Source of the DNA: a virus
Taxonomy: Duplodnaviria; Heunggongvirae; Uroviricota; Caudoviricetes
Direction: 5' to 3' (one strand)
Virus record (IMG/VR): IMGVR_UViG_2925914267_000003
Span: 1 to 43,959 of that record
DNA: 43,959 nt
In this document: in pieces, positions 27,582-27,891 of the stretch
How positions within the stretch are numbered: the first letter of the stretch is position 1
Layout: each line of letters starts with the position of its first letter
Program-made: the position numbers and the translations under genes
Notes under the pieces: generated by a model
The model's database searches: none
The model's input: the letters and a program-made list of their open reading frames with translations, nothing else
Told to the model about the DNA's origin: nothing

Positions 27582-27656
27582 TGGAGCGGGTAGCGGGAAT
27601 CGAACCCGCATCATCAGCTTGGAAGGCTGAGGTAATAGCCATTATACGATACCCGC
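27582..27656 (-). tRNA. tRNA-Gly (anticodon UCC)
   Basis: 75-nt cloverleaf read by hand: GCGGGTATCGTATAATGGCTATTACCTCAGCCTTCCAAGCTGATGATGCGGGTTCGATTCCCGCTACCCGCTCCA; near-identical to E. coli glyT as remembered. Confidence 0.8.
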
Positions 27657-27659
27657 ATA

Positions 27660-27735
27660 TGGTGCCGACTACCGGAATCGAACTGGTGACCTACTGATTA
27701 AAAGTCAGTCGCTCTACCTACTGAGCTAAGTCGGC
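27660..27735 (-). tRNA. tRNA-Lys (anticodon UUU)
   Basis: 76-nt cloverleaf: perfect 7-bp acceptor stem GCCGACT/AGTCGGC, anticodon stem ACTGA/TCAGT, loop CTTTTAA, T-loop TTCGATT, 3' CCA encoded. Confidence 0.7.
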
Positions 27736-27737
27736 AC

Positions 27738-27814
27738 TGGCCCGCCACCGAGGACTCGAACCTCGCACCATCAACTTAGAAGGTTGATGCTCTATCCGGA
27801 TGAGCTAGTAGCGG
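27738..27814 (-). tRNA. tRNA-Arg (anticodon UCU)
   Basis: 77-nt cloverleaf: anticodon stem TCAAC/GTTGA, loop CTTCTAA, T-arm CGAGG TTCGAGT CCTCG, 3' CCA encoded. Confidence 0.7.
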
Positions 27815-27815
27815 C

Positions 27816-27891
27816 TGGTGGCCCTTGCTGGATTTGAACCAGCGACCTGGCGATTATGAGTCGCTCGCTCTCACCACTGAGCTAAAGGGCC
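27816..27891 (-). tRNA. tRNA with CAU anticodon (Ile2/lysidine type or Met), ileX/ileZ-like
   Basis: 76-nt cloverleaf GGCCCTTTAGCTCAGTGGTGAGAGCGAGCGACTCATAATCGCCAGGTCGCTGGTTCAAATCCAGCAAGGGCCACCA; resembles E. coli ileX as remembered. Confidence 0.75.

Follow-up and report, generated by a model that had tools for sequence, protein, structure and literature searches.

The tRNA array at positions 27,582 to 27,891 of the 43,959-nt viral record IMGVR_UViG_2925914267_000003 (the whole stretch, positions 1 to 43,959, is referred to here as the window) is probably a small tRNA operon, a moron-like module that heads the late region of a lambdoid prophage and whose third gene is a derived threonine-to-lysine variant. 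The prophage is apparently complete, as all modules of an intact phage are present. The four tRNA genes, numbered here as slots 1 to 4 in the direction of the minus strand, are the following:

27816..27891, minus strand: slot 1, putative tRNA-Ile2 (CAU), ileZ-type; ARAGORN; Rfam, 72.5 bits
27738..27814, minus strand: slot 2, tRNA-Arg (UCU, reads AGA), argN scaffold; ARAGORN; Rfam, 55.6 bits
27660..27735, minus strand: slot 3, predicted "tRNA-Lys" (UUU), body of host thrU with G35U and A26G; ARAGORN; Rfam, 74.2 bits
27582..27656, minus strand: slot 4, tRNA-Gly (UCC, reads GGA/GGG), glyT-like; ARAGORN; Rfam, 65.6 bits

In the window, ARAGORN called these four tRNA genes and no others, each on the minus strand, and Rfam RF00005 matched each of them, with 55.6–74.2 bits (gathering score 29) and E-values from 2e-9 to 1.5e-14. 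Because the Rfam scores and E-values independently agree with the ARAGORN calls, chance matches can be excluded. On the minus strand the genes are separated by G (27815), GT (27737-27736) and TAT (27659-27657), that is, by spacers of 1, 2 and 3 nt, and each of the four has an encoded CCA at its 3' end. A sequence-only reading of this DNA had described four head-to-tail tRNAs with these spacers and CCA ends, a description in full agreement with ARAGORN, Rfam and the minus-strand sequence, and it had named the same four anticodons that ARAGORN called. It had also placed the array on the late strand, which is correct because Q, the lysis genes, the terminase and the tail genes all share the minus strand.

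Identity of the four tRNA genes

Compared with the tRNAs of E. coli K-12 MG1655, which served as the reference for the gene comparisons, slot 3 is identical to thrU (tRNA-Thr UGU) at 74 of 76 positions (97.4%). Only two bases differ: the middle base of the anticodon (G35U) and position 26 (A26G), both of them unpaired. The gene was also considered as a diverged lysT, an option that was rejected because the identity to lysT is 76%. Thus, the Gly tRNA is not the only host-like member of the array, as had been assumed from the sequence alone; slot 3 is the most host-like gene of all. Its anticodon loop is CUUUUAA and its discriminator base is A73, and the set used by lysyl-tRNA synthetase (LysRS), namely U34, U35, U36 and A73, is complete. 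In E. coli, lysine identity consists of the anticodon triplet and A73, and threonine identity consists of acceptor-stem pairs and anticodon nucleotides (PMC9976931). Charging by LysRS is expected because UUU and A73 are present and G35, a determinant for threonyl-tRNA synthetase (ThrRS), is lost; the predicted outcome is a lysine-bearing tRNA that reads AAA and AAG.

An alloacceptor shift is recognized by a tRNA body that is nearer to another amino acid family and by syntenic orthologues that retain the ancestral anticodon. Both features were found for slot 3, with a body nearer to the Thr family. The converse type of change by anticodon mutation has a functional precedent in the work of Saks et al. 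(1998), which, as cited in PMC3923123, reports that a tRNA-Arg gene mutated to a UGU anticodon rescued a thrU deletion. With respect to the second difference, conservation of the 26:44 pair is reported to depend on the anticodon (PMC3923123), and this dependence is a possible reason for the constant partner change A26G, although A26 is also the base of host lysT.

Slot 4 is identical to K-12 glyT at 73 of 75 positions, and the two differences together form one compensatory pair, C6:G67 to U6:A67. Together, slots 3 and 4 have the appearance of a thrU...glyT pair that was captured, with tyrU absent, from the thrU-tyrU-glyT-thrT operon of the host.

Slot 1 is closest to ileX among the K-12 genes (68 of 76 positions, 89.5%), has about 70% identity to metT/metU, is unlike the initiator tRNA, and is 100% identical to the tRNA-Ile of the Shiga toxin (Stx) phage 2851, an Stx2c phage. 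It bears C4-G69, A73, U12-A23 and C29-G41 and does not have the Met pairs U4-A69 and A5-U68; the bacterial Ile determinants include A73, C4-G69, U12-A23 and C29-G41 (Table 1 of PMC9976931). Copies identical to slot 1 are annotated as tRNA-Ile by PGAP. An elongator or initiator tRNA-Met was rejected as the identity of this CAU gene, given at most 70% identity and the wrong acceptor-stem determinants. Slot 1 should be a tRNA-Ile2 that, with a predicted lysidine at position 34, reads AUA. The earlier proposal that the CAU tRNA serves AUA is well borne out by the ileX match, the Ile determinant C4-G69 and the PGAP annotation.

Slot 2 has the arginine set A20, C35, U36 and G73. Of its 77 positions, it shares 68 with a slot-2 Lys(UUU) allele, 64 with argN(UCG) of Stx phages, 60 with argU and 50 with argO. 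Across 11 distinct slot-2 alleles (UCU, UCG and UUU) the cloverleaf is 97.4% paired and includes two compensatory pairs; the sole defect that recurs, a T-stem A.C mismatch, is found in UUU alleles and in Stx argN. The window allele had the best Rfam score of those tested (55.6 bits); three others scored 43–45 bits and one fell below the threshold. In the O6:H16 strain 2014EL-1346-6, slot 2 is below the Rfam threshold and unannotated. The Lys(UUU) alleles of slot 2 (L002, positions 2617-2693; L010; and about 35 other IMG/VR loci) all have the loop CCUUUAA or UCUUUAA, in which C33 replaces the near-universal U33 directly 5' of the wobble base, and most of them share the T-stem A.C mismatch. The bond directly 5' of the wobble base is the cut site of PrrC. 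These alleles are either unusual tRNAs or decaying ones.

Relatives, promoter and genomic setting

Of 5426 complete E. coli genomes, 564 matched a 391-bp query covering the array over its full length; the best match was 97.7% identical, and the annotated amino acids vary among the genomes. In an alignment with three E. coli relatives, the scaffolds are the same and the anticodons differ: slot 2 is Arg-UCU or Lys-UUU, and slot 3 of E66 and M19 is a Thr-UGU gene with a sequence identical to host thrU. Among 120 IMG/VR contigs sampled for the junction of slot 3 with the Gly gene, the most common arrangement was Thr-Gly (54 contigs), followed by Ile2-Lys-Thr-Gly (36), Ile2-Arg-Thr-Gly (15) and Ile2-Lys-Lys-Gly (2), and slot 3 was Thr-UGU in all but two of the approximately 118 slot-3 sequences that were read. 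The junction of the thrU-like gene with Gly occurs in 874 of the 5426 complete E. coli genomes (about 16%), with Thr-UGU in 869 and the Lys allele in five. A targeted scan of IMG/VR revealed U35 in six contigs, all of which also have G26, and the GTDB species representatives contained no match to the Lys allele.

Because the Thr state is that of the host gene and prevails by far, Lys-UUU is, judged by comparison of the sequences, a derived, rare and persisting allele of slot 3. A sequencing error or a private mutation was rejected as the origin of U35, as 12 assemblies share this two-base allele; its array contexts are two (Arg-Lys and Lys-Lys), its upstream modules also differ, and therefore it is neither an error nor private. 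Outside the window, the exact combination Ile2-Arg-Lys-Gly was seen in just two places, E. coli TW10690 and the IMG/VR contig L135.

The relatives have some further features. In the two-gene Thr-Gly arrays (L023, L025, L032, L039 and about 50 other IMG/VR loci), the Thr gene is preceded, about 80 nt upstream, by a conserved segment with a long-range complement (GGTTCC...GGAACCA) that abuts the tRNA; Rfam reports nothing for this segment at the gathering threshold. In the Thr-UGU alleles of L015, L020 and L121, TCAGT is changed to TCACC or TCATC, so that the pairs 27:43 and 28:42 are broken and one CNG motif is lost. Downstream of the homologous array of E. coli M19 (L003, positions 3591-4948), there are three copies of the STnc100 small RNA (sRNA; 80–104 bits) instead of holin genes.

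In the window, the array is preceded on the same strand by a DUF968/HNH gene, RusA and the Q antiterminator, and it is followed by holins, an M15 endolysin, terminase, and head and tail genes. The elements of this neighborhood are as follows:

28086..28781, minus strand: Q antiterminator; Pfam PF06323 Phage_antiter_Q, E=1.4e-91; PHROG 304, E=5.9e-108
28074..28102, minus strand: candidate late promoter (pR'-like), TTGCAA-17-TATATT, overlapping the 3' end of Q; consensus scan, 9/12 matches
27999..28022, no strand assigned (listed on plus): tR'-like bidirectional intrinsic terminator, a GC-rich hairpin between A and T runs; terminator scan
27901..27929, minus strand: putative sigma-70-like array promoter, TTGCAA-17-TATTAT, then GC-rich CCTGCGCCC; consensus scan; ends 9 nt before slot 1
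27464..27484, minus strand: weak hairpin resembling a terminator, about 100 nt past the array; consensus scan only
26082..27167, minus strand: lysis cassette of two holins and the M15 endolysin; Pfam Phage_holin_8, Phage_holin_3_7 and Peptidase_M15_4; PHROGs 198, 217 and 465
42109-43236: integrase at the prophage end, about 14 kb from the array

The motif TTGCA-N18-TATTAT occurs once in the window, compared to an expectation of 0.02. The hexamers of TTGCAA-17-TATTAT are present in a fixed register in 66 arrays with 22 distinct upstream sequences that belong to about seven divergent classes, including that of Stx phage 2851; in the same 66 arrays, the promoter spacer and the sequence farther upstream diverge. 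Furthermore, the homology between the window and the other carriers of the Lys allele starts precisely with the -35 hexamer. The comparison thus provides good evidence for an array that would bear its own promoter and travel as a unit. An upstream promoter that moves with the genes is one of the marks of a moron and was found here in silico; for the other mark, an own terminator, there is only the weak terminator-like hairpin at 27484-27464. Farther upstream, the site at 28102-28074 is a candidate pR' by its position, and the hairpin at 28022-27999 lies 108 nt upstream of the first tRNA and reads ACCCGC-CCACAA-GCGGGT followed by TTTTTGT on the minus strand; the two resemble a late promoter with its terminator.

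Some other loci of the prophage deserve mention. Between the array and the first holin there is an open reading frame (ORF) of 201 amino acids (26819-27424, minus strand). It partly coincides with the holin gene, in a different frame, and contains terminator-like hairpins at 27307-27288 and 27266-27249; it had no match in Pfam, PHROG or PADLOC and is possibly no real gene. The early region includes a gene for a toxin of the Doc/Fic family (30583-31077, minus strand; Pfam PF02661, E=1.3e-11) and the sok antitoxin RNA (31634-31808, minus strand; Rfam, 117.5 bits). Doc acts on EF-Tu and would represent a second translation-directed function in the same prophage. The sRNA DicF (38642-38693, plus strand; 76.4 bits) lies near the immunity/exonuclease region, and the sRNA IS009 (755-953, minus strand; 223.9 bits) overlaps the region of the tail-fibre assembly gene.

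Just outside the integrase, there is an ORF of 180 amino acids (43417-43959, minus strand), the start of which coincides with the end of the window. In E. coli 2011C-3911 (L137, positions 6204-7939), the 180-amino-acid gene is the second of a pair and follows a gene for an ATPase of 397 amino acids. The ATPase matches AbiLi (1.4e-24) and AriA (1.5e-9) in PADLOC; the 180-amino-acid protein has weak matches to AbiLii (5e-4) and to an OLD-like TOPRIM domain (E=0.01) and conserved IFVEGETE and VFDSD motifs. The pair looks like an AbiL/PARIS-like candidate defence system of an ATPase and a TOPRIM protein. Characterized relatives of this class cut tRNAs. The AbiL-like module is present in 8 of the 5426 E. 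coli genomes.

Codon usage, proposed function and competing explanations

To assess the codon supply provided by the array, codon usage was compared between the window (12,579 codons) and the region 100-150 kb of K-12 (14,991 codons), with the same greedy longest-ORF caller. The prophage/host ratios were as follows:

AUA: 2.6 (p = 1e-6)
AGA: 3.5 (p = 3e-8)
GGA: 1.85 (p = 2e-6)
ACA: 2.4 (p = 2e-11)
AAA: 1.07 (p = 0.32)

The four over-used codons, AUA, AGA, GGA and ACA, are those of low-copy host tRNAs, and for lysine K-12 has at least five lysT-type genes at one locus. Codon supply as the function of the array is supported for three of the tRNAs and for the ancestral Thr-UGU, but not for Lys. 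The idea that the array supplies rare-codon tRNAs for late genes, put forward on the basis of the sequence alone, was confirmed in its first part, with AUA, AGA and GGA over-used 1.85- to 3.5-fold (p<=2e-6); the late genes are not specifically supported as its beneficiaries because the over-use is stronger in the early genes. Codon supply was also rejected as the reason for the shift to Lys: AAA is not over-used, and the forfeited ACA is over-used 2.4-fold.

Our reading of the array is as follows. Transcription would probably start at its own conserved sigma-70 promoter, supplemented by Q-antiterminated read-through from the late promoter. The precursor would most likely be cut by RNase P at each 5' end, and the trailers of 1–3 nt would be trimmed to the encoded CCA. 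RNase P is proposed because spacers of 1–3 nt leave no room for sites of other endonucleases, and processing by RNase P only is also suggested by the known polycistronic tRNA transcripts of E. coli. In origin, the array appears composite, with ileZ and a gene on the argN scaffold, both common with Stx phages, joined to a thrU-like/glyT-like pair of an enterobacterial host. The array would add minor tRNAs for over-used codons that end with A, namely Ile2 for AUA, Arg-UCU for AGA and Gly-UCC for GGA, and most relatives would also supply Thr-UGU for ACA. In slot 3, the alloacceptor shift G35U, always accompanied by A26G, would trade the supply for ACA for a codon that is not over-used and a tRNA of which the host has at least five copies. 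Most likely, the Lys shift is a nearly neutral or mildly beneficial derived variant and not the result of codon-driven selection. In all of this, the gene calls, the homologies, the rarity and polarity of the Lys allele, the codon statistics and the conservation of the promoter are results of the analysis; the expression, the processing, the charging and any benefit of the array are what we infer from them.

Several observations weigh against this reading. The host codon baseline is a single 50-kb core region with genes obtained by greedy longest-ORF calling, and the rare codons are more frequent in the early genes (AUA 8.3 and AGA 9.0 per 1000) than in the downstream late genes (4.2 and 2.9). 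Since the thrU-like and glyT-like genes hardly differ from their host counterparts, they add dosage rather than new decoding. There is also a hint of selection that codon usage does not explain, as Lys(UUU) appears twice independently, in slot 2 and in slot 3, and as A26G is always linked to U35.

Such selection could come from defence nucleases. The array might replace host tRNAs that are destroyed by these enzymes, and the change of thrU to Lys might have been selected to equip the phage with a tRNA-Lys(UUU) of its own, since PrrC and PARIS AriB target this tRNA; we regard this explanation as unlikely, yet it has several points in its favor. P2-OLD blocks lambda mainly via cleavage of the host tRNA-ThrU at paired CNG motifs of the anticodon stem; its main target, thrU, is thus the very body on which slot 3 is built, and rescue comes from phage Thr-UGU tRNAs (PMC12445682). 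PARIS AriB cuts its target, tRNA-Lys(UUU), between positions 40 and 41, and the tRNA-Lys of T5, which escapes via changes in the anticodon stem, rescues (PMC11464382). Within the array family, UUU anticodons originated on two scaffolds, and this double origin keeps the explanation alive, as does the linked A26G. In addition, the disrupted 3' strand of the anticodon stem in some Thr alleles of the relatives (TCACC/TCATC) is like the signature of OLD resistance, "CNG alteration plus shorter stem", reported to protect phage tRNA-Thr from P2-OLD (PMC12445682), and the same prophage has the AbiL-like ATPase/TOPRIM candidate system beside int. However, slot 3 itself retains the paired CNG motifs (CUG/CAG) and A37 that define P2-OLD substrates, and over-expressed host thrU protects little against P2-OLD (PMC12445682). 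Its loop and its pairs 29:41, 30:40 and 31:39 are those of host lysT, whereas the PARIS-resistant tRNA-Lys of T5 differs at 29:41 and 31:39. With the known nuclease determinants unchanged, slot 3 is not supported as a PARIS- or OLD-resistant variant. The rarity of the Lys allele (5/874) is not expected for a generally useful counter-defence, and the eight genomes with the AbiL-like module do not overlap with those that have the Lys allele. A PADLOC scan of ten accessory ORFs for a known anticodon nuclease elsewhere in the window gave nothing significant, and the AbiL-like pair was the sole candidate to emerge. A broader version, in which lambdoid arrays are evolvable anticodon cassettes with scaffolds that repeatedly change between Arg-UCG, Arg-UCU, Lys-UUU and Thr-UGU and in which the Lys shift with A26G is adaptive against Lys-tRNA-cutting nucleases of the TOPRIM or PrrC type, for example as self-protection from the AbiL-like pair, appears clearly improbable.

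It is quite improbable that the array, or at least slot 3, is a silent relic, unexpressed or non-functional, that drifts in a resident prophage. The Lys allele is indeed rare and seemingly confined to a few diarrhoeal E. coli isolates, and in one of its carriers the prophage is visibly decayed, with a slot 2 below the Rfam threshold. Against drift, all four genes of the window are good tRNAs (55.6–74.2 bits), the two changes of slot 3 both avoid paired positions, divergent lineages have kept the promoter hexamers, and the prophage has every module of an intact phage. The array could also matter mainly as conserved DNA, a hotspot for the exchange of modules or the integration of elements. The start of the homology exactly at the array promoter would fit this, and so would a junction inside the array, where slots 1 and 2 are common with Stx phages and slots 3 and 4 are replaced, as well as the near-identity of slots 3 and 4 to host thrU and glyT over 74–76 nt. 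On the other side, neither an integrase nor an att-like duplication was found at the array in the loci examined, the integrase of the prophage is elsewhere (42109-43236), and changes that are compensatory or keep the cloverleaf (U6:A67 in Gly; 3:71 and 31:41 in slot 2) show selection on tRNA function and not on DNA alone, so that we consider a hotspot very improbable. The sequence-only reading had mentioned a recombination or integration target; this idea is supported only indirectly, by module boundaries that coincide with the array, and the integrase of the prophage lies about 14 kb away at the prophage end. Finally, slot 3 could still be charged by ThrRS in spite of its UUU anticodon and insert threonine at lysine codons. 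The Thr acceptor-stem determinants G1-C72 and C2-G71 are intact, but the anticodon nucleotides also count towards threonine identity and slot 3 no longer has G35, the known LysRS determinants (UUU and A73) are all present, and proteome-wide Lys-to-Thr errors would be costly, yet the Lys allele persists in at least two prophage contexts. Such mistranslation is hardly credible.

Known systems and significance

The array itself is ordinary: tRNA clusters in the late region of lambdoid phages are well known, and genomes with an identical array have already been annotated. The closest known system is the ileZ-argN-argO tRNA cluster of the Stx phages 933W and 2851, with gene names attributed to Plunkett et al. 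1999. The annotation of phage 2851 has the order Q, tRNA-Ile, tRNA-Arg, tRNA-Arg, stx2. Like this cluster, the array of the window sits on the late strand between Q with its terminator and the lysis/late genes, has a slot 1 that is 100% identical to the tRNA-Ile of 2851 and a slot 2 on the argN scaffold, and is preceded by TTGCAA-17-TATTAT. Unlike the Stx-phage cluster, it has the slot-2 anticodon UCU instead of the UCG of argN (64/77 on the same scaffold), contains thrU-derived and glyT-derived genes instead of argO, and is not followed by toxin genes. The array had been described as different from the ileZ-argN-argO trio, which is true for the tail of the array, but not for slot 1, identical to the 2851 tRNA-Ile, or for the scaffold of slot 2.

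The second half of the array resembles the host operon thrU-tyrU-glyT-thrT (tufB), as slots 3 and 4 match thrU and glyT in the same order. It differs in that tyrU and thrT are absent, the spacer has 3 nt (TAT) compared to 209 nt in the host, slot 3 has UUU (UGU in the host) as well as A26G, and the Gly gene has U6:A67. Alloacceptor shifts, or tRNA remolding, have been documented in mitochondria and eukaryotes (PMC3923123, PMC4783518). As in those cases, a Thr body carries a Lys anticodon and the syntenic orthologues keep the ancestral anticodon; unlike them, the shift in the window concerns an extra copy in a prophage, with the ancestral host gene retained. It is a single-base change within the UNU set, the same set as that of the Arg-UCU to Thr-UGU switch reported to work in E. 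coli (Saks et al. 1998, as cited in PMC3923123). Nuclease-resistant phage tRNAs (the tRNA-Lys of T5 and phage tRNA-Thr) share the anticodons UUU with the window and UGU with the relatives, but slot 3 has neither the altered 29:41/31:39 pairs of PARIS resistance nor the disrupted CNG or shortened stem of P2-OLD resistance.

In the literature searched, there was no description of the composite origin of the array, of the anticodon polymorphism of slots 2 and 3 or of the Thr-to-Lys shift of a thrU copy, and no report of an alloacceptor shift in phage tRNA arrays; the search for ileZ/argN/argO and thrU/glyT in prophages gave no relevant open-access paper. The array offers a natural one-base change of predicted amino acid identity, from Thr-UGU to Lys-UUU, for which both the host parent thrU and unshifted orthologues are available for comparison. 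It also illustrates that annotation by the anticodon only hides the origin of a tRNA. An own promoter would permit expression of the array in the lysogen, besides late read-through. As thrU is the main target of P2-OLD and the thrU-like/Gly pair is present in about 16% of the complete E. coli genomes, this family of arrays may serve as a test bed for codon supply versus counter-defence as the role of prophage tRNAs.

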